From Pseudogymnoascus verrucosus (Eukaryota), in NCBI GenBank assembly GCA_001662655.1, contig KV460209.1: DNA of 20,112 nucleotides; one strand, written 5' to 3'. A model generated the notes under the pieces. The model was not told the origin of the DNA and ran no database searches. It saw only the letters and a list, made by a program, of their open reading frames with translations. Shown piece by piece: positions 1 through 20,112 of this stretch. A program made the translations under genes and the position numbers. Numbering within the stretch: position 1 is the first letter of the stretch; each line of letters begins with the position of its first letter.

Positions 1-343
1 GGAAACAAAGGGACCTTGTCGCAGCTTTGCACATGGTATACACGGCTTCTTAGCGCTCAAAGTTACATTGGCCCACATTCGGCTTTCGGCCTCGTTCGAC
101 ATTGGGCCAACCCCATTAATCATCTGGGGGGTTGGACATGGATCAGGCCTATAGCCCCATCATTTGTTTTTTGCCTTACACGCTATGGCTGAATTCTCCT
201 GCCGAATTGTCCTGCCGAATTATTAACAATGGTGGTTGCTAGCGGACCTATGCAGAGTTGGCATCCATATAGTTGGTCTTACCGTGGTCCCACAAGTTGT
301 TAGTGTACTAGAGCTCACTAATGAAATCAAACTCTCTGATTCC

Positions 344-424
344 GTCCCACATTGTTGTCCCACATTGTTGTCCCCACATTGCTGTCCCAAATAAAATTGT
401 CCCACATCCTTCTCGCCCCACATC
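344..424. repeat. Imperfect tandem array of GTCCCACATT-like units (about 6 copies, period 13-16 bp) upstream of the FAH gene
   Basis: GTCCCACATTGTT at 344 and 357, GTCCCCACATTGCT at 370, GTCCCAAAT at 384, GTCCCACATC at 399, GCCCCACATC at 415. Confidence 0.9.
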
Positions 425-747
425 GCAGGAAGCGGTAACCCCCTTTGCCACTGTATACCTATCGCATCCGTCGATAATTATGTTGGTCTCCAACTTACAC
501 ATTCTGCAGAGGGTAGTACGGAGTAGGGATTCGGCAAATGTCGTGAGCTTGTATGAAGGTTCCGAGTGATTCTAAGTTGATCGATTGACTCTCTGTTTGG
601 ATGTGGGACTCTTTAGTATCGCTGAACCGCCCTCATGGGGCATCCCACAGCATATAGATACACATCTGCCCAATACATTCGTTGTGTCTCATGATTTAGA
701 AACTCTACCTGATTTATCCCAGCACCTGCCACTGGCTTCTTCAGAAA

Positions 748-1777
748 ATGCCTTCTTGGACTCATCTTATTCGTTTTGTTGCCGTTGAAGACAATCAGTC
801 GCACATCGGACAGTTAGTAGATCCAAGTCGCGATGTCGGATTAGACACCTTGGAGGGGCGCGAGGTGAAAGCATACGAGATTGTCGGCACCATTTTCGAC
901 GGAGAGGTTACCGAAAACATTTTCACCGTGAAATTCGTAAGTTCGACGTTGCCAACTGAGTTCGAATTATAACCTTAACCAAACTTCTAGCTACAATCAC
1001 CTGTTGAACGAGAGAGTTGCAACTATATCAGATGTCTCGGTCTGAATTATAAAGATCATGCACAGGTAAGAGCCCAGGATTAAGCACAATATCAGCAATA
1101 CCTCAACTGTAACTGACCACTATTACAGGAGGGTGGTTTCGCTATTCCGAAGGTTCCTATTCTCTTCACGAAGCCGCGTTCCGCATTGATCGGGCCTTAC
1201 CCAGCCACAGTCAACATCCCCAAATGCGCGCAGGACGGCACTAGCGATTATGAATCAGAGCTCTGCCTTGTAATCGGCAAGACTGGTCGGGATATCTCAG
1301 AAGAAGATGCCTTAGACTATGTTCTAGGCTATACTGCTTCGAACGATGTGTCAGCAAGGACTATGCAGATGATCACAGCTCAATGGAGTATGTCAAAGGG
1401 CTTGGATAGTAGCTGTCCCATTGGCCCTGTCCTGGTTGCCACTTCTGTCATTCCAGATCCACAGACTCTGCAAATCAAGGGCAGCTATAATGGAACAACT
1501 GTACAAGACGGACACACTAGGTAAGGGTTTTAAGCATACCCCCTGATTATCACGCAGACCCACTAACCTAAGAAGCGACATGATCTTCAACATCCGCCAA
1601 CAAATCTCCTACCTCTCTAAAGGAACGACACTCGAGGCAGGAACAATCTTCTTGACGGGCACTCCAGCCGGAATCGGCTACTTTCGTAAGCCAGCTGTGG
1701 TGCTTGAAGATGGTAGCCAGTTTTCTGTCTATATTGAAAAGATCGGGACATTAGTTAATAAAATACGCTACGAGTAG
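748..1777 (+). CDS. Fumarylacetoacetate hydrolase (FAH) family protein, ~285 aa; exons 748-936, 991-1065, 1129-1520, 1576-1777
   Basis: The spliced frame through three GT-AG introns is open. It contains the FAH-family motifs IRCLGLNYKDHA, PILFTKP, DYESELCLVIGK, VLGYTASNDVSAR, KGLDSSCPIGP, TSDMIF and GTIFLTGTPAGIG. The third acceptor could be 1572 instead of 1575, a one-codon difference. Confidence 0.93.
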
Positions 1778-2112
1778 AAGAGCTATAGCCGGATTTGAGC
1801 CGTTCACTTACACGGGTCCGTGTTAGAGAGGAAAATTTTCTACGTTTAGGTATGTGCACGGCACTTTTTAGAATACTAGGTTTATGTCGATGGTTGCCAA
1901 TTACACATTTGAGTCGGAGGAAGAAAGTGACACTAAATTACACCCATAAGTTACTGCTAGAATCTATTCTGTAGACTACTTAAGCTAGATTATCATCAAA
2001 GCATACCTCTATAATGTAATATTCAAGCTAACTGCGGAAATAAAAATAATAAGCGTTTCCGTTTCATATTATTTGCTATGCAGTGGTTCCTACTGTGAGC
2101 GAAGAGGCGTCG

Positions 2113-2174
2113 GACCAATTATGTGGGGGACCAATTATGTGGGGACCAATTATGTGGGTGACCAATTATGTGGG
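2113..2174. repeat. Four tandem copies of GACCAATTATGTGGG upstream of the C2H2 TF gene
   Basis: Exact 15-mer at 2113, 2129, 2144 and 2160, ending 130 bp before the ATG at 2305. Confidence 0.95.
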
Positions 2175-2304
2175 AATGGGTCTTCCCCAGGATTGTTCCC
2201 CGCCATTTCTTTCTCTCTCCGCAACCCCTTCCTATTCACGCTGCATTAGATATGTTGATGCCCCGTCCTCACTACATATTTTAGGACATCTTTTATAACT
2301 AAGA

Positions 2305-5251
2305 ATGTCGACGCCACTAAGGACAATCTCGAGGCGAAGCACTAGGAATCCCTCTGACAGCCGGAACGAACCTGCCGGTGCTGCCGGTGTTCGAAACAAG
2401 GACAAGCATTGCCAATACTGCGAAAAGATATTTAGGAAGACAGAGCATCTTCTACGACATGAGCGAAGCCATACAAAGGAGAAGCCATTTCGTTGTGATA
2501 TGTGCAGTAAGGTTTACACTAGACAGTATCCGCGCCACCTGATTATCTCTATAGTACAGGGCTAAATTGCCATAGTGACACTCTACTTCGACACTCCAAA
2601 ACCCATGACATCGACCTTTCTCATCTCGAAGCCGGCATCACATTATCGCAAATGAACCATGATGGCCATATATCTTCTGAGAACAATAGCCACAGCACAG
2701 AGCAACGTGCGACAGAACGACCTGAAATAAACTTTGATCTTCAAGGTTGGCCAAGTGCAATCCCAGAGCAAATTAACAATAGCACAATGCAAAATGGCTA
2801 TGAGAGCCAGACGTCGCCCTTTCCCACGGTGCACCTAACCGTTGCCGCAGATGGCAACGTACATGATATGCGCACGCAGACTACAATACAGAGTGACAGC
2901 CAGCGACTCTTTATGGAAAACTTATTTCCAGACCCAACGGGAAACCTCACCGGTACTCCACTAATATCTGCGAATATGCCTTGGGGGGGGTCACTGATGT
3001 CTCCAGGGCCGTCATGGTTGGTAGGCTATGATTTCGATCTCGAGGCATTGAACACGTCAGTCTCCACGACCCTGTGCGCCACCGAGCCTTTATTTCAATC
3101 TCAAGTTAATCGAACGGCCATGCCAAGTGCGCTACAGTTGGGAGAGATTCCTGAGGCTGAGATGCATGGAGAACGAAAGGATGTCACAAACGAATGCGTC
3201 CGCAGAGGATGGTTCTCTCATATTGACCCGTTTGATGAAAAGGATGATCATGGCGGTGCCACCACAGGCGAGATGACTCCAGTCACCGCGAGAGATCAAT
3301 ATGACATCGGAGACAGCTTCCGTCACAGGATAAGCCAACGACTTAGAGCTCGCACAATTGATGAGCCGCTCCCGTCGACAAAATTCCTGGTATGCCAATT
3401 TTCTGTCAAATGACTTAGACGAAGACAGAAATCTGATACTAAACGCAGAATCTATCCGTCCAAATATATTTTACTAAATTTAATCCTATATTTCCGGTTA
3501 TACACGGCCAGACGTTTCGACCTACACCGAGGAACTCGCTGCTACTATTATCAATCACGTCCATAGGTAGTTTACTTCTCGGATCAAAGGGAGCAGCAAG
3601 CCAGGGTATACGTATATTTGAAAGGCTTAACAAAGCTATTCTAGCGTCGGTGTGTAATTTGAAACGGCAAACCACTCTACATACGGCTAACCAAACTTCT
3701 AGTGGGAAAATACAGTCTTATCTGACCCAACAGAGGCGGCATCCATGATACAGGCAGCCTTAGTCGGCCAAACATTCGGCTTCTTATCTGGGGTATATTT
3801 GGCCTTGATTAATCTAATGCCGTTTCTAACAATCTATTCATTGGCAGATTTCAAAACATCTTGCTATTGTAGAGGCCTTTCATGGCTCAATTATTGCTGT
3901 AGGTTTCGGGGTACTAAACTCCGCAGTAGTAAGGCTAATGTCTTCCATATAGTGGGCAAGGAGATGTCAAATGTTTAACTATAGAACAAGCCATCCCCAA
4001 GTTGAACATCTAAGTGGTGCGAGTTTGCATGAGGCTTGGAAGGCTTGGGCAAGATCGGAGTCAATTGTGAGGTATGTGGGTATCCAAGGCGGAAAACGCG
4101 TTTACTTATATTGGATACTTTGAAGGACAGTGCTAGGATTGTACATCCATGATGCCAAGCTTGCTTGCATGTTTCATCATGAACCACTTCTCCGTCACGA
4201 TTCAATCCTGGTGCCGGTGGCCGCTGACGACGACATCTTCAATGCACCCAGCGCAGCCATCTGGAGAGAGAAAATGCTCCGTCAGTCGGCATCTCGGATA
4301 CCAGTTCATGAATGTCTACACGTAAATCATCACCACGATCATGGTTCGCGGCTACTGCCCCAGGAATTAAGCTGGAAAAATAGTCACTTCACTGCATATG
4401 TCATACTCTATGGCATCTCCTCGACAATTAGCGAGAAACAACAGATGGGTCAAATACGTCCTGCTTCTGCAAACTTTAACAAATATTTTGAAGCTCTCAT
4501 TTGTTGGTATCGCACCTTTCAAAGAGACGTCGGCGTTTCTGAAAACCAAAATATCCAGCGTCCTGACACGCTCTGCCTCATGGTACTATGGCACACTGTC
4601 TTCATGAGCCTAGTAACTGATTTTAATGTCCTCGAACGCGCTGTTGGCCGCAATGGCGCAGAGAACTGGACGTTGGATGCGGATCTTGCATACGCGACTA
4701 GTTGGGCAACATCGAGAGAAGCCCAGCGCTGCATTCTCCACGCCCATGCCCTGCTCTACTCTCTTGGAGCCTTGCGCCTCGACGCTGAAGCTGCCATCCA
4801 TATTCCACACTGCCTCTTTCTAGCAGGAATAGCCAGTTACTGCTACACACGCTTCCGTCGACCTAGCTCATTTGAAACACATGGCCATAATCAAACCTCT
4901 CACCTAGCCTCCCCTGACTCACAGCTGCAGCCCACCATGGAGTTCCCTGAGTTTACAGTTCGAGGAGTGCCAATACCGCAACACCTCTTCGGTTCGCCAG
5001 CAGCTAGCACTAGTGTAGGCGGTACCTTCCCGGCAACTGATGACGCCAGTAATGCGTTTAGTCCAGAAGAGGATCCTACGACGCGATTCCGACCAACCTC
5101 AGATGTGGGGGCTGCCATGATGTGTACGTTAATCGACATGTTACAACGGATTGGACATTGGGGCATTGCACGGAAGTATGCTGCAACGTTATCCACCCTC
5201 GTGGATGCGGACAGCGATGAGGACTGGAGGTTCATCATGAGCGATCACTAG
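2305..5251 (+). CDS. Transcription factor with two N-terminal C2H2 zinc fingers and a fungal-specific TF domain, ~873 aa; exons 2305-2525, 2576-3389, 3449-3649, 3703-3792, 3848-3898, 3953-4071, 4126-5251
   Basis: After splicing it reads CQYCEKIFRKTEHLLRHERSH-TKEKPF-RCDMCSKVYTRHDTLLRHSKTH. The middle region LPSTKFLNLSVQIYFTKFNPIFPVIHGQTF and the segments AWKAWARSESIVRTVLGLYIHD and HEPLLRH are typical of this fungal C2H2 TF class. Exon lengths sum to 2622 nt, in frame to the stop. Confidence 0.9.
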
Positions 5252-5430
5252 CGGACTCTCACGGGTAACTCAATAACAACCGGCGACACGCTGTGTCAGA
5301 CACTCATTTAAATGCATCGTTTTTAAAAGGGCTATTCATTGTATAATTAGAACTAAAATCAGATACTTCAGATGATCTAGTTCTTCTGGGGCGCACCGTC
5401 AAATTCTCATCGAATCTTTCTCATGGCCGC

Positions 5431-6910
5431 CTATTCCAGGAAATCAGCGGGAACCTCTGGGCCCCACACTGCAAGGGATTCGCTCCCTGCGGGACCAAAG
5501 CCAATAGGTGTATCTTTGTTGACAGTGTCTCCATCCGTGTAGTGCTATTAGAGGAGTTATCAGCAAATGCATTGGAAAGGGCAGAGACATCGAAAGAGAT
5601 GATGGGATAGGAGAAAAAGCGATACAAACGTACCTCGATCATGAAACCGGTAGGGTCCCACCAATAATCAAATATTTGGGACCCCAGGATATGTCGGCCT
5701 ACTCCCCAAACAGATTTGTAACCCTTCTTAGCTAGCCATCTAGAGAAACGTTAGCTCACAAGAGTATGTTTACTTCTGTCGTTACAGATATGATGCGTCA
5801 AACAAAATGGTGGAAACGTACTGGTGTCCCAGTATCTGGGTATCAAAGTCATGCACCTCGAAAGAGGCGTGGTGCACATGTGCCGTCGGGTTCTTGCTCA
5901 TGAAGAAGGTATGATGGTCGACGTAGTCATCGCCCCGGTCGATGTGTGCAAAGAGCGCTACCTCGATACGTGCGGATGGATCGTTCGGGTCCTGAACGTA
6001 CATGAAATCGGACGGGACGAGATTAAAAGTGCGGGTGTAAAATTGGACTTGCTTTTGAAGGTCAAGGACACAGAGGCCGTAGTGGCCGAGCTTGTTGTTT
6101 GTCAGTACGCATCCTCAGACCACGCCCCGAGATATTATTACCTTGTGGACTGCAGCTGGGCCTGCTGTAAAACGCTGGAAGGATCCTATGCGCGGCTTAT
6201 CTTCTTCAAAGTTGTATACGAGCTTCTCAGGGAGCTGGCCTGGTTCGACTAATTCCTGGCCATATAGGAGGTTGACGGGAAAACCTTCCGGGTCATAGAT
6301 TGTAACACGGCTGCCCCCTCCTGGAGCGTTTGTCAACTCTTCAATCTTACTTGCGCCGGGTATTGCCGCAGCCCTAAATTATTATTAGCAATGATGGCCT
6401 CGTCTAGATGCGTAGAAAATGGCTCTCGGGTACCAACCTCTCTAAATCTGCATAACTCTCCACAGTGTACGAACCGCCAAGGAACTTCTTCGGACCTTTC
6501 TCAACCACATATACATAAGGTTCCGAGCCATATCCTCTGTACCAAATGGCGTCCTCTGTTTTCTTCACGCAATGCATCCCAAAGTTCTCCAAGAATATCG
6601 AAATCTCTGTGAAGTCGGGCTGCTGGTAGCGCATATGTGATAGGCATACAAGCCGGATTTGTTTGCTCTGGTCGATTTTCTCTCGGGCCTTCCAGTCGCT
6701 GATGCTCATGCTGTCCCAGCCGATCATTTTCATTGCTTCCTTAGCGGGAAGTGAGTACCCTTCATTGCCATTATTGAGGGGACCGGGTTTAGAAGCCAGG
6801 TCGGGATATGCTTTCTGGCCACCACTATTCTAATTGTGTGAGATGATGATTTTGAAGATGGGATGAGCCACGAGAAGACATACTGTGATGTCGGCCACTG
6901 TAGAAACCAT
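5431..6910 (-). CDS. VOC/glyoxalase-fold extradiol ring-cleavage dioxygenase, trihydroxytoluene-oxygenase-like, ~379 aa; exons 6910-6884, 6829-6438, 6373-6142, 6090-5822, 5739-5634, 5544-5431
   Basis: The spliced product has LSHMRYQQPD, YDPEGFPVNLLYG, VHKLGHYGL, HHTFF, HVHHASFEVHDFD, WGVGRHILGSQIFDYWWDPTGFMIEHYTDGD, giving the His/His/Glu metal triad of type I extradiol dioxygenases. Total length is 1140 nt in frame. The short first exon (MVSTVADIT) is less certain; an alternative start is 6733. Confidence 0.88.
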
Positions 6911-7803
6911 GTCGGAGTATTCAATAGTGAGAAGACCTGAGTGTTGTTTAAAGTCTTCTTAGCCTCAGTTCTGGCCTAACTGAAGGTGATATACGACGCA
7001 CACGGTTTAAGTAGCAATCTTAAAGAATAGGTGCATCTGTACTATAGATATCCTTATGATCATAACACAAAGAGTGTTAGAGTAACCTTTCATACATCAT
7101 ATAAGTCTACTAGCTACCCCGCACAACTGCCGAGGAATTGCAGTTTGTATACGAATAGTTGTTAAAGCCGGTTTCGTTGTCCGGAGAAATGCAAGTACAT
7201 ACGTGAATGGCGGGACGGTGGGATCTGAATGGTGGGACAGTGGGACAGTGGGACAGTAGGACTGTGGGACTGTGGGACTGTGGGACGGGAACGTTTTGGG
7301 ATGAAGATCCACTTTGTCGGACCAAAAAGAACGTTAGGCAGCTTCCCCACTATCCCCACAATCTATCACCTAATCCATACCTGTAAATAATAACTGTTAG
7401 AGAAGTATTCTTCTACAATGTTGCGTCCCTAGTAAGATAGATCGGCTCTACGGAGCAGGCGTTGTTCAATGTGCCTCAGTCCCACCAGTCTCTTTTTCAC
7501 CCCTGCCCCGTCGCAATACTCCCACATATCCGCCTGCGCAACGGGTGTGTTCGTTAGCTCCTAGGTTCTCCGCGGTTTAATGCATGCCAGTCCTTATCCA
7601 AGTCAATCAAAAAAGTAGATCATTAGATTTATGGCAGGTGTTTCCCCTGTGGGCCGGCTACCCGTGGCGTTTCATGGCGCTGCGTTTACTAAAAAGACTC
7701 ACTTGGATAGTTGTTAGCATTGGCTCTGACCCATCTTCATTCTCTTGATCTGTTATTTCACAAGAACATCCGCCGCTGAATTTCTAATAAGCCATAATAA
7801 TCT
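6911..7803. promoter_or_regulatory. Bidirectional promoter shared by the dioxygenase and monooxygenase genes
   Basis: Head-to-head start codons about 890 bp apart, with a central GTGGGAC array. Confidence 0.75.
7232..7287. repeat. Seven tandem 8-bp units GTGGGAC(A/T) in the divergent dioxygenase/monooxygenase promoter
   Basis: GTGGGACA x3, GTAGGACT, GTGGGACT x2, GTGGGACG. Additional isolated GTGGG/CCCAC sites lie near 7218, 7346, 7356, 7481, 7521 and 7649. Confidence 0.95.
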
Positions 7804-10009
7804 ATGGTGGCCTCGTCAGTTACGATGTCCTCAGCAGTGGACGAAGAATTCGAGATAATTATCTGCGGATGTGGTCCTACAGGCGCGCTGCTCTCTGCAA
7901 ACCTAGGACGACTAGGTGTGAGACATCTTATCCTAGAGAAGGAGTCAGATATAACGACGGATCCTAGAGGGATTGTCTTAGATGAAGACGGGATTCGTAG
8001 CCTTCAAGGTGTTGGGAAATATGAGGCGCTCTTTCGAGATGTAGGGAAATGTGAGTCGTGTGAAAGCCATATCGCGGGAGTCTACATTGCTAACCAGATG
8101 CATAGCTGTGGGAATGTTCCGCTTCATTGAGGGAGGAAAAGGCCTTACATGCAAGCCATTCCTGCAGATCAACCAAGATACTGTAAAGATAGCCCCATGG
8201 CGTGCTGTATACGTTTGACAACTACTAACCAGCAGTAGATAACCGGAGGCACCGGCCACGTAGGATTTATGAGCCACAAACAACCAGCATTGGAAAACCA
8301 GTTGAGACTTGCCATGAACAAGACATTTTGCAATTTAAGATCAAATTCAACTGTCGTCGCAATCGAAGAGGTCGAAGAATACGTCTATGTCGAGTATAGA
8401 GATGGAGCCGGTCAAAATCGAAAGGTACGCGCTAAGTTTCTGGTCGGCGCAGACGGAAAAACTGGTTTTACGAGAAAGAATTACCTCGAACCTCGCGGGG
8501 TCATCATGGAAAAAAGCAGGGAGTACATCACCACCATCTTAGTTTGTTTCCTCAAGCTGATCAATATAGGTTTCACTACGAGGCGATTTGGGTTGCCTTG
8601 AACTGGCGTTTAGTTCTGCCCAATCCAAAATCACACCCTAAGTTTCCTCTTTGGGACCTAGGTTACACCCCAGAAGAGGTGTACGATTTATTTTTCCCTC
8701 CATATTTCAACTTCATATGTGATCCTGCCAGACCCTCAGTTTGTGGTCGATTTGGGCGCACTGAAGATCGATTATGGCGGTTCGAATTTGTGGTTAAGGA
8801 AGGTGAAGACAAAAACCAAATGTCATCACAAGAAGAGACGAGGAGGATTATACTCCCATATCTACGCCATCCAGGCAAGAAATACGGGTGAATATAACGC
8901 TATAAGATATCGTTTATTCTATACTGACATTGACACAGCCTACCAGAAGATGTATCTTGGCCAGAAGATTGTATCGAATGCATACGATCCCGCCCCTTTT
9001 CATTCTCGGCAAGAAGTTGCAATCGCTGGTCCTTGGGGCGCGTGATCCTCTGCGGTGACGCTGCTCACGTTTTCCCACCATGTGAGTACCTCGACACTAA
9101 TATATTAGAAGTGACGGTCTGACTATCGCAGTTGGAGGGCAGGGCATCGCGTCCGGATTTCGAGATGCTACATCACTCGCCTGGCGGCTTCGCCTCGCCA
9201 TCAACCCATCCTGCAAGGACTACGACTTCCTCCTCCGCGGCTGGTACGCGGAACGAAAGCAGCAACTCGAACGTTCCTTGGCAGCCACGATTGCAAATGG
9301 GGAATACTGCAATGAGCCATCCCGGATAAAGGCGTTCGTGCGGAAATGGGTGCTTTGGGCTGTACAGCTTGTGCCAGCCTGGAGACAACAGTTGGAACTA
9401 GGCCCTAGAGCCCAAGGCATGACGAAGTACGACTGGGTTCCAGGGATGCCGTTCTTGCCCCAATTTGGAGGCGGAAAGTCCTTCCCCCAAGTCTTTTGCG
9501 CGCCTATTAATGGACCAGCGCCGCCCATTCCAATGTTCACAGACGATGCAGTATTCAAAGCTGAGAAGAACGGCTGTTTTCAGATTGTCGCGCTTCTTGA
9601 TTCGTTGCAACAGCTTCCTGTCGCACTAGAAGAGGTCAAGAGTGTAACCACCCAAATCGGGAATGGCGACATTTTAGACTCAATGGAGACAACCTACTTG
9701 ATCCAGAACCAACGCGGCAGCGCCGCAGGACCAGCATCTGCCCATCTCGACTTACTGCAGGATACGAGCACTTGTGTACGCATCATTGATGCTGAAGAAT
9801 ATACTGCCGCCGGGGCAGGAACAACAGGCTTTACGAGGCCAAACCCGCTATACTATGACGCGAACCGGATAAGGAAGGATCTAGGTGCGAATGCAAGGTA
9901 CATAATCGTGAGATGGGATCGCATGGTTTTTGCGGCGTGTAAGGATGCTGCGGAGTTACAGAAGGCAATATGTCTTGTTGACGGCTGTCTTAATGGTAGT
10001 GCAAATTAG
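7804..10009 (+). CDS. FAD-dependent aromatic monooxygenase (group A flavoprotein hydroxylase, MhpA-like), ~648 aa; exons 7804-8050, 8106-8182, 8239-8522, 8570-8887, 8939-9081, 9132-10009
   Basis: It has the Rossmann motif IIICGCGPTG, the DG motif FLVGADGKTG, and the GD motif VILCGDAAHVFPPFGGQGIASGFRDA assembled across an intron. Total length is 1947 nt in frame. The start could be 7825. Confidence 0.92.
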
Positions 10010-10090
10010 TTAGCGTTGCTGCAGTTACTATAACCACTATTACTATGCACAATCCCTCTTTAGACCTTTAAGCGGCGTAAGTATAATAGA

Positions 10091-10962
10091 CTTGATCTAT
10101 CTGGACTTATTGACCTCGACATGAACAACCCATCTAATGCTCTCGTCCCATTTAACGTACCAAATTCGAGATTCGATTCGGAAGGGTCTCCTAGGACCAG
10201 ATGATCCGCTCATTGCATCTAGTCATTGCATCTAGTCTCAACAATATTGCGCTGTCATATACTGAGACAAGTGACCTTAAGAAGGCATACTCAGCGCACG
10301 AGAAGGCGCTATCAATTCGTCTCCGCGCGGAAACCAGAGTTACTAACACTTACAGCAACATGCCTAGCTTACTTCTTCGAATGAGAAAACCAAATGCAGC
10401 TAAAGAGATGATGTAAAAGTGTCCAGTTCTAAAGGACTTTACTAACGACAGTTTTATAAACACTAGGAACCTACGATACGTTAGTAACATGGTTCTTCTT
10501 TCCTACATACGCTTTGCTTAGGGTTAACTAGACAATGTAATGTGGCTTATAGCTAAGGCTCTTACATTCAGACAGAAATTAAAGGGGAATAGACTTAAGA
10601 CATGTGATTCTCTATATGATGTTATAGATATGCTTATTCGCTAGGGGCGCTTTATCATTAGCTATGTAAGTTTTAGAATTTCTAGAGAGCTTATAAATTC
10701 ACTAGGGCTATAGACTAATATAAAATAGCAAGCTTCTTAAATAGCTTATAGCTATATTAGAGACTATAACTAAGGCTAAAGGATAGCTTACCTAGGCTAA
10801 CTATAAGCTAAGTGTATTATATAGTAAGAAAGAGATGCCTAATAAGAGCTAAATTAGTAAAGCCTAGGCTATTTCTCTAAGAGATAAACTAGGACCTAAA
10901 AGTAAGGATAGACTGTTTAAAGAAAGAGAGTTTATAAAGCTATGTCTTTTATGTTATAGTAA
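10091..10962 (+). pseudogene. 5'-truncated, frameshifted, RIP-mutated TPR-repeat gene fragment (C-terminal part of an NB-ARC/TPR-like protein); ends approximate
   Basis: Reads LGPDDPLIASS/LNNIALSYTE..AYSAHEKALSIRL..TNTYSNMPSLLLRM..KALTFRQKLKGNRLKTCDSLYDV. A 13-bp duplication (CATTGCATCTAGT, 10211-10236) shifts the frame. In-frame TAA/TAG stops increase rightwards. A probable intron lies at ~10666-10728. Confidence 0.72.
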
Positions 10963-11142
10963 AGAAGGAGACTTTAATATTCTTAGTTTATATAGTACTC
11001 TTAATTACTTAACATTATAGGTAATAGCTATATATACTATACCTTAGATAAGTAATTACTATAGGTAGTTAACTATTATTAAGGGAGTAGTTTTAAGGAT
11101 ATATATAATAGTTCCTAGCCTATATAGACTTTAGTAGATTAG

Positions 11143-11671
11143 TGTAACGCTAGGTCTTAAACTATAAGACTTATAGAGGTTTTATTACGTTAGTTTACTT
11201 AATAGAGGAGGTAGGGGATTAGATACTAAAGGCTTTTATAAAACACGTTATAGTATATAACAAATACTATATTAAGTTGAGCACGAAGCTCCTATCTAAG
11301 AACTATCTATCTACTTATATAGTAGCGTTGTACTAAAGGGAATAGTTAGAATAGCAGACTCTCTAACTATTCTTACTATTCCTACTAATCTAATTACGTG
11401 TACATCCTATAAGAGGTGCTACACTTATTATAGGTACTAATTCCTATAGGTGCCCTTCTAAGGAGGCACCTTACTCTATATAGGTGCCTTTCCTAATAGG
11501 TACCTTTCTTTTACTAGGTACCTTCTACAAAAGGTACCTTTTCCTAAAGGTGCCCTTATTAACTAAGCTACCTATAATCTCTATATCTATTTCCTACTAC
11601 TAATAGCTATAAGCTATTTTACCTTATTACTCTATCTTATAGTATATAGGTTGTATGTTTTAGCTATAACA
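11143..11671 (-). repeat. LTR copy A (529 bp), 3' LTR of element 1
   Basis: TG...CA termini (TGTAAC...ATAACA). It is the reverse complement of 15264-15793 apart mainly from transitions. Confidence 0.93.
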
Positions 11672-11676
11672 CTAGG

Positions 11677-11687
11677 TCCCCTCCCTT
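11677..11687 (-). other. Polypurine tract of element 1
   Basis: The minus strand reads AAGGGAGGGGA, ending 5 nt before the 3' LTR start at 11671. Confidence 0.75.
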
Positions 11688-11784
11688 AAGGCCTAGTCCT
11701 ATAGGCCTTACTAACTAAGAATCCTACTAGCCTACTTAAGTGTAGTAGGTCCCCTATATTTATAGGGTAGGTAAGGCTACAACT

Positions 11785-12339
11785 ATGTCTTTCTCTAAAC
11801 ACTTAAAAATTAAAGAATGCAAACTGCTTACTAACTATATAACCTATAAAGGGGTTAAAATGCCTCTCTATTCCTACTATAAGAAATGAGGTCTTTACTA
11901 CCTTGCTTCTACTTCCTCTAAATGATGTAATAAATGTGTTTATATAAATTCTTACAACTATAACGTCTCTAGCCCTTCTACTAGCAACTAGCAGTTATTA
12001 TAGAAAGAAGAAGATTGTCTTTATCTTAAAACTTATATAACCTATAAAGCTATAGTAACTACTATAGCGTGTCTTAACTACCTTAAGCAATAGTAGGATC
12101 TTCTTAAGACCTAAGGTGCTAAGATGCTTTATTATAGTCTAAAGACCCTTAATGAACTAAAGGAGGTTAAAGAACATAAGTAATAAGAAACTAAAGCTTA
12201 TGCTTACCTTGCTAGTCCTTCTATAACTAACCCTAGGAGTGCTGTTCCTAAGCCTAACTATCTATTAGCCCTTTCCCCTAGGTTCTTTAAACGTTAGGGT
12301 ATTAACAGTAGAACTCTACTAGTAACTCTAGGCAGCTAA
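11785..12339 (+). pseudogene. RIP-degraded extra ORF antisense to pol within element 1 (185 codons); Zn2Cys6-like spacing followed by a coiled-coil-like region
   Basis: Runs ATG 11785 to TAA 12339 with no frameshift. All internal stops (TGA/TAG/TAA) are revertible by C>T or G>A. TGT/TAY codons fall at spacing x2-x6-x8-x2-x7. The segment GAKMLYYSLKTLNELKEVKE reverts to GAEMLRRGLKTLDELEEVEE. Confidence 0.6.
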
Positions 12340-14400
12340 GGTTCCCCCTTAACTCCTATAAGTTGTTTATAGGTTTATAACCTTTCTATTTTATTAAAAA
12401 CTCTTCTTAGCGTCCTACTAACCTTCTATCTAAGATTGCCTTAACCTTATATTTAATAATCTTATTCTTAGGTTAAAGTTTAGTGTCTATTGTAATTAGG
12501 GCATCCCCTCTTACTAGTTCTAATAATAAGATATAAAACACTAGGTAGAGTCTAGAGTTCTTAGGTAGCTATAGCTTATAATTAACTAAGCTAACTTTCT
12601 CTAATATCTTAAATAGTCCTAATTTCTTAAAGTCTAACTTTGTACTTAGCTGTTTTGTTTTAATGTGTTTTTAGAGTAGGTATACTTTATCCTCCTCCTT
12701 AAAGGTAGGTTCTATACTATACTTCTTATTTATATATATAGTAGATTGTTTGTTTAAGAACTAGATATCTGTTATAAGTTGTTTCTAGAAGGAAAGTATC
12801 TTTAATACTTCTAACGTTCCTTCCTTAGAATGAAATTTATCTAGTCTTAGCGTCTTATATACCTTTAGTTACTATCTGTTATTAGTAAAGAATAGTAAGA
12901 CCTTTGTTACCTCTAATAGTGCTAAGTTATATATAAACTCTACTAGATGTAGGTACTAGACCTAGTTGTTTTATTTAATATTAACATAGCTTTATAAATA
13001 TACTTCTAACGTCTAGTTAGTTTGTTCTGTTTATCTATCTATTTATAGGTAGAAGGCTATAAACAGCTTATAGTTTGTTCTAAGCTACGCTATAACTATC
13101 TACTAGAATTTAGATGTAAAGAGCTTGTCTTAATCTAAAATTATCTTATCTAGGAGTCTATACGCTATAACAATGACTTTTAAGAAGGTATAAGCTAATG
13201 CCTTTATATCTAATGCTTCTATAAATAGTATAAAGTAGGCTTCCTTTATAAGTTAACAGTTAGAGACTATAATAGAGTCTATAATAAATCCTATTATTAG
13301 TTCTTTTAATGGTAGTAGCTTTATAATAAAGTTAATTACTATTAAGGACTATACTTATCCTAGTGTTAGTAGTGATTTTAAAAGTCTATATAGTACGTGC
13401 CTATTTACTTTTAACTTCTAGCAAATGTTACATCCTAACACTACTATCTCTACTTACTTCCTTAGTCCTAGGAAGTAGTAGTGTTATATAATTTATTTAA
13501 AGGTTTGTATTACTCCCTAATGTCTATGTACTAGCAACAAGTGTTGTTCTTATACTAGTAGGCGTCTTATTTAACTTAGGACATACACTAATCCTTTAAA
13601 TTATATTAACCCTTATTCGTTAATAGAGAAGTTTCCTTTAACTCTATTTAGGGTTCACTTTGCTATTTTATCTATTGTATAAGCGTTCTTAAGTCTCTAC
13701 TTAAGTTCTATATCTTCTATAATAGCAATTATAGCTAGTAGTTCATTATATTATATTCCTACATCTGTTTTCTTTAATATTGCCCTAGGTCTTTCTTCCT
13801 TTAGGCTAATGTAATTAATCCTTCTACTAAAAGCATCTACTCTTACATTCTTAGAGCCCTTATAATAAGTTATTATAAAGTAGTAGGCTATAAGGGTTTC
13901 TACCTAGTAGACTTGTCTATAGTTTAAAACCTTAGTTATAGTAAAGTATATAAGGTTCTTATAATCTATTTATACCTATATAGGGTAGGTAGATCCCTTA
14001 AGATATACTTACTACTACTTAAAGGCAATAATAATAGCTAGTAGCTTCTTATTATAGATGTTATAGTTAAGCTCTATAGGTAACAGTTTCCTAGAGTAAT
14101 ATATAATTAGTTTAAACTTACTATTCTTATCTAGCTAATTTAGATATACTCTAATTACAAAATTAGAAGAGTTTGTCTTAAGGATAATCTTCTTTATAGG
14201 GTTAAATGTAGCAAGGATTAGTACCTTTATAAACTTTATCTTAAGTTCTTAGAAGGCAGCTTCTACTTTGTCTATCTATTTAAACGCAAGGTCCTTCCTA
14301 GTAAGCTCTATAAGTAGTTAGGCTACCTTAGAATATCCTATAATAAACTAGTAGTAGAAGTTAGCAAAGCCTAAAAAGGCTTGTACTTCCTTAACTATAG

Positions 14401-14699
14401 TATAAGGATGCCTCCTTACTTAGGGTAGTTATAGCTGTTATATAGTGCTATTAAGACTTAGGGCTGTTATAGGTTAGTTGCAACTAATAGCCTTAGGTAT
14501 ATAACGTAAGGAAGCCTTAGGCAAATAGGGAGCTAGCTAAGTTAGAGTAGTTTTAGGTATTTTAAGGGAATAGCTATATAGGGTTACACCTTTATCTTTT
14601 TTATATCCTTTATAGTAGACCTATAGGATTATACTAACTTCTATTTAACTTACACTCCTATATGCAACTTCTTGTAATATAGTGCCCTATGTCCTTATA
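14401..14699. mobile_element. 299-bp solo LTR of a second family inserted into pol of element 1
   Basis: Flanked by the 5-bp direct repeat TATAG (14396-14400 and 14700-14704). It has inverted termini TATAAGGA...TCCTTATA, the RIP form of TGTAAGGA...TCCTTACA. Removing it restores colinearity with 19150-19200. Confidence 0.85.
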
Positions 14700-15263
14700 T
14701 ATAGTTAGTATTAGCTATTCTAACACTACTATAACTTTTACTTAGTTCATTTTAATGCTATGTGTTCTAATAATATAACCTAAGAATTTAACTTAGTTCT
14801 TATAAAACTTACATTTCTCTAGCTTTAACAGTAGGTTATATTCCTTTAGCTTCTAAAGGATAAGCTTAACATACTAAGTATATTTGTCCTTGTTTACTAA
14901 GTATACTAGTATATTGTCTAGGTAAACGATAGTAAATATATCTAGATATTTATATAAAGCATTATTCATTAAGCGTTGTATAGATATAGGGGCGTTAGTT
15001 AGCCTAAAGGGTATAACTTAATATTTAAATAGACTATAGTAGGTGTAGAATGCTGTTTTCTACTCCTTACTATTAGCTATCTAGATTAGATTGTATACAC
15101 TATATAGGTCTAGCTTAGTAAAGATCTTAGCTCCTTAGAACCTATTATATAACTTATTAATTAACAGTAAGGTGTATTAATCCTTTATTATTATGTTGTT
15201 TAATGCTTAATAGTCTATATATAGTCGTTTGCTTCTATCCTTCTTAGGAACCTATAACATTAG

Positions 15264-15793
15264 TGTTATAGCTAAAACATATAACCTATATGCTATAAGA
15301 TAGAATAATAAGGTAAAATAGCTTGTAGCTAATTAGCAGTAGGAAATGGACGTAGGGATTGTAGGTAGCTTAGTTAATAAGGGCACCTTTAGGAAAAGGT
15401 ACCTTTCTTAGAAGGTACCTAGTAAAAGAGAGGTGCCTATTAGGAAAGGCACCTATATAGAGCAAGGTGACTCCTTAAAAGGGCACTTATAGGAATCAGT
15501 ACCTAAAATAAGTATAGCACCTCTTATAGGACATATATATAATTAGATTAGTAGGAATAGTGAGAATAGCTAGAGAGTCTACTATTCTAACTATTCCCTT
15601 TAGTATAATGCTACTATATAAGTAGATAGTTATTTCTTAGATAGGAGCTTTATGCTTAACTTAATATAGTATTTTGTTATATACTATAACGTGTTTTATA
15701 AAAGCCTTTATATCTAATCCCCTACCTCCTCTATTAAGTAAACTAACGTAACAAAACCTCTATAAGTCTTATAGTTTAAGACCTAGCGTTACA
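15264..15793 (+). repeat. LTR copy B (530 bp), 5' LTR of element 2
   Basis: TGTTATAGC...GCGTTACA, matching copies A and C. A TATATAAG box lies at 15615-15622. Confidence 0.93.
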
Positions 15794-15841
15794 CTTTAAG
15801 CACTACTTCTATAAGGTACTAGCTTATACACTAAAGCAACT

Positions 15842-17827
15842 ATAGCTCTAAATGTTCTAAGCCTAAGAGGAAGTGTTGTTAGACAACCTAACACACCTAC
15901 CCTATAGTTGTCTTAAAGACCTATTACTAAGAACAAAGAGATGCCTAACGCGCCTATAACATTAGAACTTAGGGAGGCCTTATGTGTTAAGCTCCCTAAT
16001 ACCTCCTCTAGTAATTAAAAGGAACTTAAAGTATTCTTGCTATAGGTTAAACTATATTAGCATTTTAACGACAATAAGTTTCCTACTAGAGAAAGCTATG
16101 CTCTATAGACTTTGTCCTACCTTTAAGGGGAGGCCCTTTAATAGATTGAACCTATCCTTAAGGACTACTTCTAACACAAAAGTACTAATAGAAGCATAGT
16201 AGCTACTTAAACTATATTTAGCAGCTACAAAGGATTCTATAAGGAGATCTAATGTATATTTAGAGATATTAATGAAATCAAGACTATAGTAGACTACCTG
16301 TTTACGCTTAAGTAGATAGGTAGCGCCCTTATATACTCTATAGAATTCTAGAGATATAGCAATTAGACAGGATAGGATGCTAGCGCGCTTATTAGCTACT
16401 ATTAACATAGGCTAAAGAGCTATATATATATAGAACTTACCTGTTTAGAGCAACAACTAACAGACATAGTAACGCTAATTAAGTATATAGTCTAAATTAA
16501 CAATTAGCTATACAAATTCTAGAAGGAACAACAGACCTATAACAAACCTAAGAAAAATTATCCCTACTAAGGAAACAAAGGTAGATAATAGGAACAACAC
16601 CTATAAGATAACTATTAGTTAGACCTAATAGAACTCAATGCTACGTTTAAGCCTAGACGACCCTATAACCTAAAAAAGGACAAGTAATTTAAGGAACGAC
16701 TTTGCTTTAACTATAATAAGCTAGGCTACATAGCCTAAGACTATAGACAGCTAAAGAAGGGAAATAGTAAATATAAATTTAGTAAACAACTCAACGCTAC
16801 CTAGTAAGGCTAAGGAGGCTATAACGCCTTAGGAATGTAGTTAAACGCTACATTTATAAACAAATAGGACTAGGGAATTAATGGCGATAGCACCCTAGAA
16901 GAAGAAAGCTTAGATAAGGAATTAGAGGTAGAATCCCTTACTGTCTTAGAACAAGGAACCTTTAACGAGCTTATACCTATAGAACTAATAAGTCTGTAGT
17001 ATAAGAGCGTAGTATAACGTATAGCAAAACACGCCTACTTAAAGATTAAAACTAAACAAGACAAGCCTAGTGCCCTAAGGAGAATCCCTACACTTAAGGG
17101 CATCTATAGAAACCTGTTATAGGGACTCCTATTAGAGTGTAAGGTAGACGACTACAAGAACGACCTCTAGAGATACTATAACATACTAACTAATAAGCTT
17201 AGACAGCTTAGTACGTTAGTAGAAATAGAAACCTTCTTAGTTTAGGAAGTAAGAGAATTAGGAAAAGATGTTAAATATATAGCTATATTAAAGAATATAA
17301 AGAGCGTTGAACTTTACTACTAGGATAGAAAGAGGGCCCTAAAGAAGTATAACGAAAAAGCTAGAGATATAATTTAATAGGAAAACATAAGACCTACTAT
17401 ACAACTAGAGCGGAGAGCTATAGAACAATTAGAGATGTTTACTACGCCTTTAAGGGAAGATAGTAAATAGGTAAAAGGACAACGGGAATTAGTAAGGGCA
17501 GATGTAATAGAGACTAATTATCCCTAGTATGCGTATGTCTACTAGGAGTACTATAGTAAAGACAACTATAAACTCTACTAGAGAAAGAAACACTAGCATT
17601 AGTTATTCCCTTAATCCTTACCTAAGATACACTTTTAAGACATAGAATAGGTTTATGCCCTTAGACACAGTTAGTCTAAAGGAGAATTACCTATAAAGAA
17701 TAAATAGGTATATAAGAGATACCTACACCTATTAAGGGAAGTAGTAAGATAAGTAGGACTGCCCCTATTAGGACTGCTAATAGAGGACAACGAATATTAT
17801 TCTCCCTCTAATAAGTTAAAAAACTAG
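15842..17827 (+). pseudogene. gag: gag relic of element 2 (~660 codons)
   Basis: The motifs KLPNTSSSN*KELKVFLL (15989), the zinc knuckle CFNYNKLGYIA*DY (= CFNCxKPGHxARDC) and the terminal TAG at 17825 share one frame. The start is inferred at a RIP-mutated ATA at 15842; an intact in-frame ATG lies at 15941. Confidence 0.75.
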
Positions 17828-19781
17828 GAGTCCTTAACAGTAGGCTACTAGTAAGTAATAAGAAGAGGCCTAGTACAAAACAGCTAGGTGCTATAGAAGG
17901 TAGTATATAGCTATATATAGTTGCTAAGATATAATAGTAACACCTCTAAGTAATAATTAACTTTAGAGTAACAGGCAACTTTATAATAAAGAAAGTAGTA
18001 GACACATAAGGTTTTAAGACGTAATTAAAAGCTAATCCTTACCTACTAATAGTTGTAGATAGAGAACCTATCTTAACTAATAAGGGAATAGTAACCTATA
18101 AGACAGTCCTATTAGAAATGGTTATGCTACATAGGCATAAGGAAACGATCTAATTTAACATTATATACATAGATAATCATATATGTATCCTTAGTGTACT
18201 ATAGCTTAAGAAACACAACCCCTAGATTAACTAGTAGAATAAGAAAGTTATAATGAGCTAATGTGTATATAAACAATAAATAGACATGCTACATTAAGAG
18301 AAACCCTCTTAAGGCTAATGTAAGGTATATACAACCTCTATAGAGCCTAGTGACCTAGCCTAGGCACCCTTACTAATGAGTATACTAGTAGAGTATAAGG
18401 AATATAAGTAGTTATTCTAGGAAGGCCCTAAGAACAAGGCGCTTCCTAAGCACTAACTATAGGACTATATAATACCCTTAGAAGAAGGAAAGAGTCTACC
18501 ATTTAGACTAATATACTAGATGTTAGTAGATGAGTTAAAACTGCTAAAAGAATATATTAACGATAACCTTAAGAAAGGATTTATTAGACTGTCTAAATCT
18601 CCTATAGGAAGCCTAATGTTATAGGTTCTTAAGAAGGATAGAAGTAAACAACTATACATAGACTATTAAGCATTAAACAACATAATGATAAAGGATCGAT
18701 ACGCCTTACTATTAATTAATAAGTTACATAATAGATTCTAAGGAGCTAAGATCTTTACTAAGCTAGATCTACATAGCATATATAACCTAATCTAGATAGC
18801 TAATAGCAAGGAGTAGAAGATAGCATTCTATACCTACTATAGCCTATTTAAATATTAAGTTATGCCCTTTAGGTTAACTAACGCCCCTATATCTATGCAA
18901 CGCTTAATAAATGACGCTTTACATAAATATCTAGACATATTTACTATTGTTTACTTAGACGATATACTAGTATACTTAGTAAACAAGGACAAATATACTT
19001 AGCATGTTAAGCTTGTCCTCTAGAAGCTAAAGGAATACAACCTACTGTTAAAGCTAGAGAAATGTAAGTTCTATAAAAACTAAGTTGAATTCTTAGGCTA
19101 CATTATTAGAACGTATAGCATTAAGATAGACTAAGTAAAGGTCATGGTAGTATTAGAATAGCTAATACTAACTATAGTTAAGGAAGTATAAGCCTTCTTA
19201 AGCTTTGCTAACTTTTACCGTTAGTTCATTATAGGATATTCTAAGGTAGCTTAACTACTTATAGAGCTTACTAGGAAGGATCTTGTGTTTAAATGGATAG
19301 ATAAAGCAGAGACTGCCTTCTAGGAACTTAAGATAAAGTTTATAGAGGCACTTATCCTTATAACATTTAACCCTATAAAGAAGATTGTCCTTAAGACAGA
19401 CGCTTCTAACTTTACAATTAGAGCATGTCTAAATTAGCTAGGTGAGAACAGTAAGTTTAAACTAATTACGTACTACTCTAGGAAACTGTTACCTATAGAG
19501 CTTAACTATAACATCTATAATAAGGAGCTACTAGCTATTATCATTGCCTTTAAGTAGTAGTATGTATATCTTAAGGGATCTACCTATACTATATAAGTGT
19601 AGACAGATTATAAGAACCTTATATACTTTACTACAACTAAGGTTTTAAACTATAGATAAGTCTACTAGGCAGAAATCCTTATAGCCTACAACTTTACAAT
19701 AACCTATTATAAAGGCTCTAAGAATGTAAGAGTAGATGCTCTTAGTAGAAGGACTAACTACATTAGCCTAAAGGAAGAAAG
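17818..19781 (+). pseudogene. pol: pol relic of element 2 (protease, RT, RNase H) in the -1 frame relative to gag
   Basis: Protease, RT and RNase H motifs as above, with many RIP stops. The slippery heptamer AAAAAAC at 17818-17824 lies directly before the gag stop. Confidence 0.85.
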
Positions 19782-20112
19782 TGTTACAGCTGAAACATGC
19801 AACCTATATGCCACAAGATAGAATAATAAGGTAAAATAGCTTGCAGCTAATTAGCAGCAGGAAATGGACGCAGAGATTGTAGGTAGCTTAGTTAATGAGG
19901 GCACCTTTGGGAAAAGGTACCTTTCTTAGAAGGTACCTAGCAAAAGAAAGGTGCCTATTAGGAAAGGCACCTATGCAGAGCAAGGTGCCTCCTTAGAAGG
20001 GCACCTATAGGAATCGGTACCTGCAATAAGTGTAGCACCTCTTACAGGACGCACACGTAATTGGATTAGTAGGAATAGTGAGAATAGTTAGAGAGTCTGC
20101 TATTCCAACTAT
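19782..20112 (+). mobile_element. LTR copy C (partial, runs off the window); start of a third same-family insertion or a solo LTR
   Basis: TGTTACAGCTGAAACATGC... aligns to copy B but keeps many CA/TG dinucleotides. It interrupts pol after AAGGAAGAAAG, where element 1 continues ACCTAGG. Confidence 0.9.

Follow-up and report, generated by a model that had tools for sequence, protein, structure and literature searches.

Tandem arrays of a GTGGG core in all three promoter regions of a putative aromatic-catabolism gene cluster of Pseudogymnoascus verrucosus, with the cluster-encoded two-finger C2H2 regulator as a candidate binder

The stretch of DNA analysed here, hereafter called the window, comprises 20,112 nucleotides of contig KV460209.1 from the Pseudogymnoascus verrucosus assembly GCA_001662655.1. 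Its first half can be read as a cluster of fungal genes, whose GT...AG introns are 47-89 nt long, and all three promoter-bearing intergenic regions of this cluster carry tandem arrays of one short core, GTGGG(A/G), which fits the site predicted for a C2H2 zinc-finger regulator encoded in the cluster itself. The G+C content is approximately 46-50% in the first 10 kb of the window and approximately 30% in the second half. Four gene models were built by hand, all of them with a stop-free translation, and the cluster genes were annotated exon by exon with Pfam. According to the models, the regions P1 (1-747, upstream of gene A), P2 (1778-2304, upstream of gene B) and P3 (6911-7803, between the divergent genes C and D), which total 2,167 bp, are all the promoter-bearing intergenic regions of the four genes. 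The cluster may extend past the 5' end of the window, in which no RNA family was found by Rfam and no tRNA by ARAGORN.

Gene A (748-1777, plus strand; 4 exons, 286 amino acids) encodes a hydrolase/isomerase/decarboxylase of the FAH family (PF01557, E 2.8e-34) and of the HpcE/HpaG type, and it is nearest to the HpcE/HpaG-type enzymes of meta-cleavage pathways (PDB 1gtt, E 2.4e-25). Gene B (2305-5251, plus strand; 7 exons, 873 amino acids) encodes the regulator, in which a pair of C2H2 fingers near the N-terminus is combined with a Fungal_trans domain (PF04082). An extradiol-type ring-cleavage dioxygenase of the VOC/glyoxalase family (PF00903) is encoded by gene C (5431-6910, minus strand; 6 exons, 379 amino acids), and a flavin adenine dinucleotide (FAD)-dependent aromatic monooxygenase by gene D (7804-10009, plus strand; 6 exons, 648 amino acids), with PF01494 on two exons and a C-terminal exon for which a PDB sequence search found no relative. 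VE01_01676 of P. verrucosus, a protein of 379 amino acids and thus as long as our model, is matched with 100% identity by exon 2 of gene C. The homologues of gene C in Aspergillus carry the name 'trihydroxytoluene oxygenase', and there is a weak match in PDB to a 2,3-dihydroxybiphenyl dioxygenase (E 0.017). Judging by these relatives, the cluster looks like a route for a phenolic compound, leading from a hydroxylase through extradiol ring cleavage to a hydrolase. As our literature search on trihydroxytoluene or orcinol in Aspergillus found no fungal catabolic cluster among the papers listed, the phenolic substrate is a mere guess from the names of the homologues.

For array 1, located in the promoter of gene A (344-424), the core is on the minus strand, and five GTGGG sites, starting at 346, 359, 373, 401 and 417, are accompanied by one degenerate TTGGGAC unit, read from the sequence near 387, with a spacing of 13-16 bp. 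This array was recognised by Tandem Repeats Finder (TRF) at 344-389 (period 13-14 bp, 3.1-3.5 copies, 91-93% matches), from where it runs on to 421 via two diverged copies, and its unit on the motif strand reads AACAATGTGGGAC. The array is placed 324-404 bp ahead of gene A's ATG. Array 2 belongs to the promoter of the regulator itself (2112-2175, plus strand), where it lies 130-193 bp upstream of the ATG of gene B, and consists of four units of 15-16 bp, each with a CCAAT box and ATGTGGG, the unit being composed of the CCAAT box plus ATGTGGGG (TRF: 2112-2174, period 16 bp, 4.0 copies, 93% matches). In the divergent promoter of genes C and D, array 3 (7204-7287, plus strand) is separated by 294-377 bp from the start codon of gene C and by 517-600 bp from the start codon of gene D. 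It contains seven GTGGG sites and begins with a 22-bp duplication (7204-7245 in TRF), followed by about seven 8-bp units (TRF: 7232-7286, period 8 bp, 6.9 copies, 93% matches) of two sub-types, GTGGGACA and then GTGGGACT, with one GTAGGACT variant; the natural variant GTAGGAC occurs at 7256. The single canonical G-quadruplex pattern of the window is also inside array 3 (7266-7289, plus strand; four G3 tracts with loops of up to 5 nt). The arrays are where the initial annotation, made from the sequence alone, had placed them, and its description of array 1 as a minus-strand array with a period of 13-16 bp was borne out by the site list, in which arrays 2 and 3 have the core on the plus strand. 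Taken together, the three arrays are 130-600 bp upstream of the start codons.

Further sites are found outside the three arrays. In P1, a weak 17-bp repeat (65-109, minus strand; 64% matches in TRF) contains one GTGGGC site at 72 and is followed by single sites at 289-293 (GTGGGAC, minus strand), at 603 (GTGGG on the plus strand, within the extended word GGATGTGGGAC at 599-614) and at 644-648 (GTGGGAT, minus strand). The extended word is an inverted copy of the unit at 394-409; this pair is an example of non-tandem sites that carry the extended word, with an 11-nt version of it in common. In P3, a minus-strand mini-array (7344-7363; 9 bp x 2.2 copies in TRF) holds two GTGGGG sites (7346 and 7355), two single sites are located at 7481-7525 on the minus strand (GTGGGAC at 7481 and ATGTGGGAG at 7521), and a single variant site, GTGGGC, is on the plus strand at 7649-7653. 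All of the single sites listed initially (72, 289, 603, 644, 7346, 7355, 7481 and 7521) exist, the one at 72 reading GTGGGC; the list was not complete, as 7218 and 7649 (GTGGGC) had been missed together with the 22-bp duplication at 7204-7245.

The CCAAT box is 7 nt upstream of the GTGGG core in every unit of array 2, and at 65-85 a GTGGGC directly abuts a CCAAT box, which is a different arrangement. There are five CCAAT boxes in P2 (9.5 per kb), compared with 1.0-2.7 per kb in the genes. When the densities of CreA, AreA (HGATAR) and CCAAT words were counted, CCAAT alone stood out, in P2 and as part of the array 2 unit. GTGGG and CCAAT together may constitute a composite element involving the CCAAT-binding complex.

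The GTGGG word is strongly concentrated in the promoter regions. The window contains 36 copies, 25 of them in the 2,167 bp of promoter regions (9 in P1, 4 in P2 and 12 in P3, the region which serves two divergent genes and is the richest in sites) and 11 in 7,663 bp of genic DNA (7 in exons and 4 in introns); the word is absent from the 179 bp that separate the 3' ends of genes B and C and from the AT-rich half of 10 kb. For GTGGGR, 29 matches were found against 8.1 +/- 2.6 in 100 shuffles (maximum 16), and for TGTGGGR 19 against 2.3 +/- 1.7 (maximum 8). An unbiased scan returned TGTGGG as the top hexamer common to all three promoters, with 9, 4 and 6 copies against 4 in genic DNA, in agreement with the earlier proposal of one shared core. 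As tandem copies inflate such counts, each array was collapsed to one unit. After collapsing, 14 GTGGG remained in 2,029 bp of promoter against 11 in 7,663 bp of genic DNA (4.8-fold, p = 1.3e-4), 10 TGTGGG against 4 (9.4-fold, p = 7e-5) and 6 GTGGG(G)AC against 1 (p = 5e-4), and these collapsed counts were not attained in any of 2,000 first-order Markov resamplings.

The conserved word extends beyond the GTGGG core. Across the 25 promoter sites, base -1 is T in 19 and base +6 is C in 15, while at the sixth base A occurs in 16 sites, G in 6, C in 2 and T in a single one; the set of 14 sites with one site per array has the same base pattern. This gives a consensus word of approximately 8 bp, wTGTGGGAC, sometimes with one or two additional G. 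Arrays 1, 2 and 3 agree in the core alone, and their unit lengths and spacers differ, therefore they were not copied from one another. Independent local amplification of each array is the simplest reading of this pattern, and it is the one that the initial annotation had put forward. Array 3 went through at least two rounds of expansion, and the copies inside the arrays are 91-96% alike in TRF. Within positions 1-10,300, the part that bears the genes, no TRF array of more than three copies is without the motif, and motif-free TRF rows of 3.3 and 6.8 copies are confined to the AT-rich half. P1 also contains an unrelated 13-bp tandem duplication (191-221; 2.4 copies, 94% matches), so slippage is not confined to the motif.

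The regulator carries both of its fingers near the N-terminus, and they are canonical C2H2 fingers joined by a TGEKP-like linker, TKEKPF. When helix positions are numbered so that the first zinc-binding histidine is position 7, finger 1 (2410-2472, plus strand; residues 36-56) has K, E, H and R at helix positions -1, 2, 3 and 6, and finger 2 (2494-2606, plus strand; residues 64-84) has R, D, T and R. The latter is interrupted by a 50-nt intron (2526-2575) in the codon for helix position 1, so that finger 2 is complete only once the intron is spliced; the unspliced reading runs into a stop 13 codons into the intron and yields a one-finger stub. The helices KTEHLLR and RHDTLLR named in the initial annotation are correct once this intron is removed. 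Pfam matches to zf-C2H2 and zf-H2C2_2 were obtained on exon 1 of gene B, and PF04082 was found on the exon 3 piece with 24.9 bits (cut-off 23; E 1.3e-5) and, as a precomputed assignment, in all of the 23 listed regulator homologues except P0006. The position of the finger 2 intron may be conserved. The database homologues P0001, P0002 and P0004 start after or inside finger 2, and the first exon of the regulator seems to be missed often by automatic annotation. A PDB sequence search with P0005 gave generic zinc-finger matches only, ADR1 (2adr) being the sole fungal one, and returned no complex with the same helices.

According to the canonical contact model described in PMC3874201, the 5' base of a triplet is contacted from helix position 6, the middle base from position 3 and the 3' base from position -1, which is the helix-to-base mapping used in the initial annotation; position 2 contacts the next triplet on the complementary strand, and the fingers follow one another in the 3' to 5' direction. 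Significant matches for 75-83% of 143 natural proteins are reported there. With this model, finger 2 of the regulator sits 5' of finger 1 and the pair predicts 5'-G-N-G-G-G-N. Arginine at positions 6 and -1 and histidine at position 3 prefer G, and threonine at position 3 can accommodate T. In the observed core GTGGG(A/G), each determined position agrees with the predicted site, and the chance that an arbitrary 8-mer contains such a site on either strand is 2.2% for GNGGGN and 1.2% for GYGGGN. The agreement between the core and the finger code can be considered informative, not proof. A literature search with the words GTGGGG and TGTGGGA and fungal factors gave no characterised factor; the one paper obtained for GTGGGG deals with CreA and FarB, and those obtained for TGTGGGA were irrelevant judging by title or abstract. 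A search on the binding motif or gene cluster of regulators with C2H2 fingers and a fungal-specific transcription factor domain gave nothing on this regulator family.

The nearest relatives of the gene B product are unnamed Leotiomycete proteins. Over the large C-terminal exon, identity is 68-69% in Pseudogymnoascus, 53% for P0003, 50% in Phialocephala and 49% in Cudoniella and Bisporella, and more distant relatives are found in the Chaetothyriales and Xylariales. An exhaustive homologue search gave 374 representative clusters with E values up to 1e-3, 281 of them with E <= 1e-10 and 89 with E <= 1e-30. In Bisporella sp. PMI_857, one 31,140-bp contig carries both a regulator homologue (KAH8585707.1) and a dioxygenase homologue (KAH8585710.1), whose accession numbers differ by three; the linkage of regulator and dioxygenase is therefore conserved between distant Leotiomycetes. 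For the dioxygenase, the 90%-identity cluster of gene C contains seven further full-length Pseudogymnoascus proteins; Pseudogymnoascus dioxygenases with an identity of 90% or more include V502_02057, V494_04453, V499_01922, VE04_06127, O988_00732 and VE03_05218. For the regulator, the best of the full-length Pseudogymnoascus homologues among those listed reach only 68-69% identity, and none from P. verrucosus was returned; in the Pseudogymnoascus annotations concerned, the gene for the regulator has probably been left unannotated or truncated.

The closest known system is HxnR and the hxn regulon of Aspergillus nidulans. HxnR is described in PMC5746545 as a protein of 865 amino acids with two N-terminal C2H2 fingers and PF04082 at residues 394-668, encoded in the nicotinate (hxn) cluster, pathway-specific and self-regulated, and is termed 'an unusual specific transcription factor' by its authors, as such regulators are normally Zn2Cys6 proteins. 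Its site was obtained with the Persikov-Singh predictor, the one behind the contact model above, as GHGGGG, relaxed to GNGGDG, and occurs in the hxn promoters, including one in hxnR's own; according to PMC8478523, this site is a prediction and not an experimentally determined one. The gene B product resembles HxnR in architecture, with two linked N-terminal fingers plus a central PF04082 domain in 873 compared with 865 amino acids, and belongs to the same class as HxnR, Klf1 and AN6733. In both cases the regulator gene sits inside a catabolic cluster and G-box sites are found in the cluster promoters, including the regulator's own, and GTGGGG is one instance of GHGGGG as published. The cluster described here likewise has a shared motif in every promoter, and this motif fits the contact residues of the regulator, as a prediction only. 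There are also differences. Each promoter here has 4-12 sites, mostly in near-perfect tandem arrays, whereas the published text assigns one putative site to the hxnR promoter; the preferred sixth base here is A; and the enzymes are an FAH hydrolase, a VOC dioxygenase and an FAD monooxygenase, with no hxn-type genes (hxnS, hxnT, hxnP). Gene B was also considered as an orthologue of HxnR (AN11197), and this appears to be wrong, as the HxnR orthologue of Capronia coronata is A1O1_07578 (PMC5746545, Table S3) and the gene B homologue in that species is A1O1_04622. When the finger region of P0005 was searched, 11 proteins were returned, none of them HxnR. As a self-regulated protein of the C2H2 plus PF04082 type that is encoded within its cluster, HxnR sets a precedent, and thereby supports the reading of the gene B product as the regulator of its own cluster.

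The arrays are almost certainly cis-regulatory arrays of sites for a two-finger C2H2 protein. The explanation that we favour, and hold to be probable though well short of secure, is that they are activating sites of an aromatic-catabolism cluster, with the gene B regulator as the likeliest binder. In such a small cluster, the arrays would serve as upstream activating elements for a pathway in which the FAD monooxygenase acts first, followed by the extradiol ring-cleavage dioxygenase and the FAH-type hydrolase. Each array would form a homotypic cluster of binding sites, recognised by a two-finger C2H2 protein and most probably by the gene B product, with finger 2 (R-1, D2, T3, R6) reading GTG and finger 1 (K-1, E2, H3, R6) reading GG(A/G). 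The flanking T at -1 and AC at +5/+6 could be recognised by a partner, or by parts of the protein other than the fingers. If HxnR is taken as the analogue, PF04082 may hold the regulator inactive until a pathway metabolite appears. Several adjacent sites would then raise occupancy and output, and the four sites in the regulator's own promoter could bring about positive autoregulation, leading to a sharp, self-reinforcing induction. Because units and spacers differ around the same core and array 3 contains sub-families, duplication would have been independent and repeated, and the arrays would have arisen through at least three independent local tandem duplications by slippage of short units, possibly with selection for copy number. 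The initial annotation had suggested that the arrays work as an amplifier or a switch, which we infer only.

Several observations weigh against this explanation, in particular against the gene B product as the sole binder. We compared the contact residues of 26 proteins with an intact N-terminal finger pair among 169, many of the others being fragments or models that start past the fingers, and the residues of finger 1 are K/(E or D)/H/R in 25 of these 26 family members and those of finger 2 R/D/(T or S)/R, again in 25 of the 26. The contact residues are thus a family-wide property; therefore, the gene B product is one of several candidate binders per genome and the core is not private to it. 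One genome can have at least two family members, for example Cladophialophora carrionii with G647_02915 and G647_05354, and a paralogue of the gene B product could be the protein that binds the arrays. The 'self-contained regulon' of the initial annotation is an assumption, and the family-wide signature weakens it. As the core alone cannot tell paralogues apart, the flanks, the arrays or a partner must contribute, or there must be cross-talk. The conserved word of approximately 8 bp is longer than the footprint of two fingers, the commonest sixth base is A (16 of the 25 promoter sites), and we know of no firm rule by which lysine at -1 prefers A. A spacing of 8 bp may prevent neighbouring sites from being occupied jointly. 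Short tandem duplications free of the motif are found nearby (191-221, 2372-2389 and 10210-10237 in TRF), and duplication is not special to the motif. Finally, binding of the arrays by the gene B product is a prediction only.

The main alternative, which we consider rather unlikely, is that the arrays are regulatory but are bound by some other G-box-reading C2H2 protein, either a C2H2 plus PF04082 paralogue or a wide-domain protein of the CreA/Mig1 type, with the cluster regulator acting elsewhere or indirectly. The contact signature shared by 25 of 26 family members, in a family of 281 representative clusters at E <= 1e-10, is in favour of a paralogue. For a CreA-type protein, whose consensus site is SYGGRG, six of the 25 promoter sites are suitable, as they read GTGGGG (373, 417, 2123, 2139, 7346 and 7355). 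The remaining 19 do not fit this consensus (16 GTGGGA, 2 GTGGGC and 1 GTGGGT), so the arrays do not qualify as CreA/Mig1 sites, and the promoters, with 4.0-9.5 SYGGRG per kb, exceed genes B, C and D, with 3.2-3.7 per kb, by a factor of no more than about 2.5 (gene A has 1.0 per kb). The presence of an array in the regulator's own promoter and the linkage of regulator and dioxygenase, conserved across orders, speak for the cis-encoded regulator instead of any other binder.

The arrays could also have no regulatory role. They could be neutral mini- or microsatellites produced by slippage in repeat-prone DNA, with the core present by mutational bias or by chance, in line with the motif-free tandem duplications of the same window and with the 91-96% similarity of the copies, which suggests that the arrays are young. 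This is improbable in our view, because one word of 7-8 bp is common to three arrays of different unit length, at least nine non-tandem sites with the same word are found in the same promoters, the enrichment persists after the arrays are collapsed, every TRF array of more than three copies within 1-10,300 carries the motif, and the word matches the code-predicted site of the adjacent regulator, for which the chance is 2%. An effect through DNA structure, in which evenly spaced G3 tracts form G-quadruplexes that modulate transcription, could be imagined for array 3, which holds the window's sole canonical G3N1-7 pattern (7266-7289, plus strand). However, this pattern is present in array 3 alone; arrays 1 and 2 have 10-11 nt between their G tracts and no canonical pattern, a quadruplex is impossible at the single sites, and the conserved T at -1 and AC at +5/+6 are not required by such a structure, which makes this explanation very unlikely. 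We give least credence to the arrays being remnants of the subterminal repeats of some mobile element, once bound by its transposase and located in promoters by chance. The core is indeed inverted between array 1 (minus) and array 2 (plus), which flank gene A, and a large degraded repeat region adjoins the cluster, but there are no terminal inverted repeats, long direct repeats or longer homology around the arrays (the best inverted pair is 16 nt), the unit lengths are unequal between arrays, and the AT-rich repeats contain zero GTGGG.

Compared with better known regulators and promoters, the locus combines familiar elements. Like Adr1 and Mig1/CreA, the gene B product has two canonical fingers with a TGEKP-like linker and would read a G-rich hexamer, and it shares with them R6 and H3 in finger 1 and R-1, D2 and R6 in finger 2; it differs in having lysine and not arginine at -1 of finger 1, and threonine at position 3 of finger 2. 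Adr1 and CreA are wide-domain regulators and are not known to carry PF04082. Several activator sites in a shared bidirectional promoter, as in P3, are also known from GAL1-GAL10 (Gal4) and niiA-niaD (NirA), both mentioned in PMC8478523, and here as there activator sites occur in each promoter of the co-regulated set. Gal4 and NirA are Zn2Cys6 proteins, which the gene B product is not. Their sites are dispersed and are not known to be head-to-tail tandem duplicates. A head-to-tail promoter duplication that multiplies putative transcription factor sites, as found here, is known from the TR34 and TR46 tandem repeats of cyp51A in Aspergillus fumigatus, which PMC4954732 and PMC9239056 link to altered expression. 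As described there, the TR34/TR46 unit joins a site of the CCAAT-binding complex with an activator site, as the array 2 unit appears to do, whereas those repeats are 2-3 copies of 34-120 bp, recently selected by azoles and at one gene, compared with 4-7 copies of 8-16 bp units in three promoters of one cluster here. Shared promoters with several sites and promoter tandem repeats are therefore well known; it is less usual for one core to be expanded three times, with three unit lengths, in one small cluster.

The second half of the window (10000-20112) is AT-rich (G+C approximately 0.28-0.37) and without long open frames. It contains inverted repeats with arms of 611, 572, 343 and 263 nt, approximately 91% complementary, plus a 300-nt direct repeat, and looks like nested copies of a repeat element that were degraded by repeat-induced point mutation and abut the cluster. 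The same 15-mer is present at 976-990, at the end of intron 1 of gene A, and at 3688-3702, at the end of intron 3 of gene B, in both cases spanning a branch-point-like region through to the acceptor AG; this can be explained either by chance or by a common splice-signal context.

It is conceivable, though we consider it rather unlikely at present, that the arrays are evolvable gain controls, or 'binding-site microsatellites', in which specificity and output would come from the avidity of the array and the flanking bases. On this assumption, a single site could not insulate the pathway, because dozens of paralogous C2H2 plus PF04082 regulators share a 5-6 bp core. If true, slippage would tune each promoter independently and reversibly, including the regulator's own, and copy number would differ among Pseudogymnoascus strains and set the threshold and level of cluster induction.

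Pathway-specific regulators with C2H2 fingers and PF04082 have been called unusual (PMC5746545), and HxnR is the one characterised example. For this family, which comprises 281 or more representative clusters with shared contact residues, the locus described here gives a candidate site, wTGTGGGAC, that is unusually explicit. The natural series of 4, 9 and 12 sites with three spacings provides material for the effects of site number and spacing on induction and autoregulation, and the promoters together with the regulator would make a compact pair for fungal engineering. If the motif is shared by many paralogues, how cross-talk is avoided becomes a question in its own right. As the contact residues are common to the family, one binding experiment could calibrate the whole of it.

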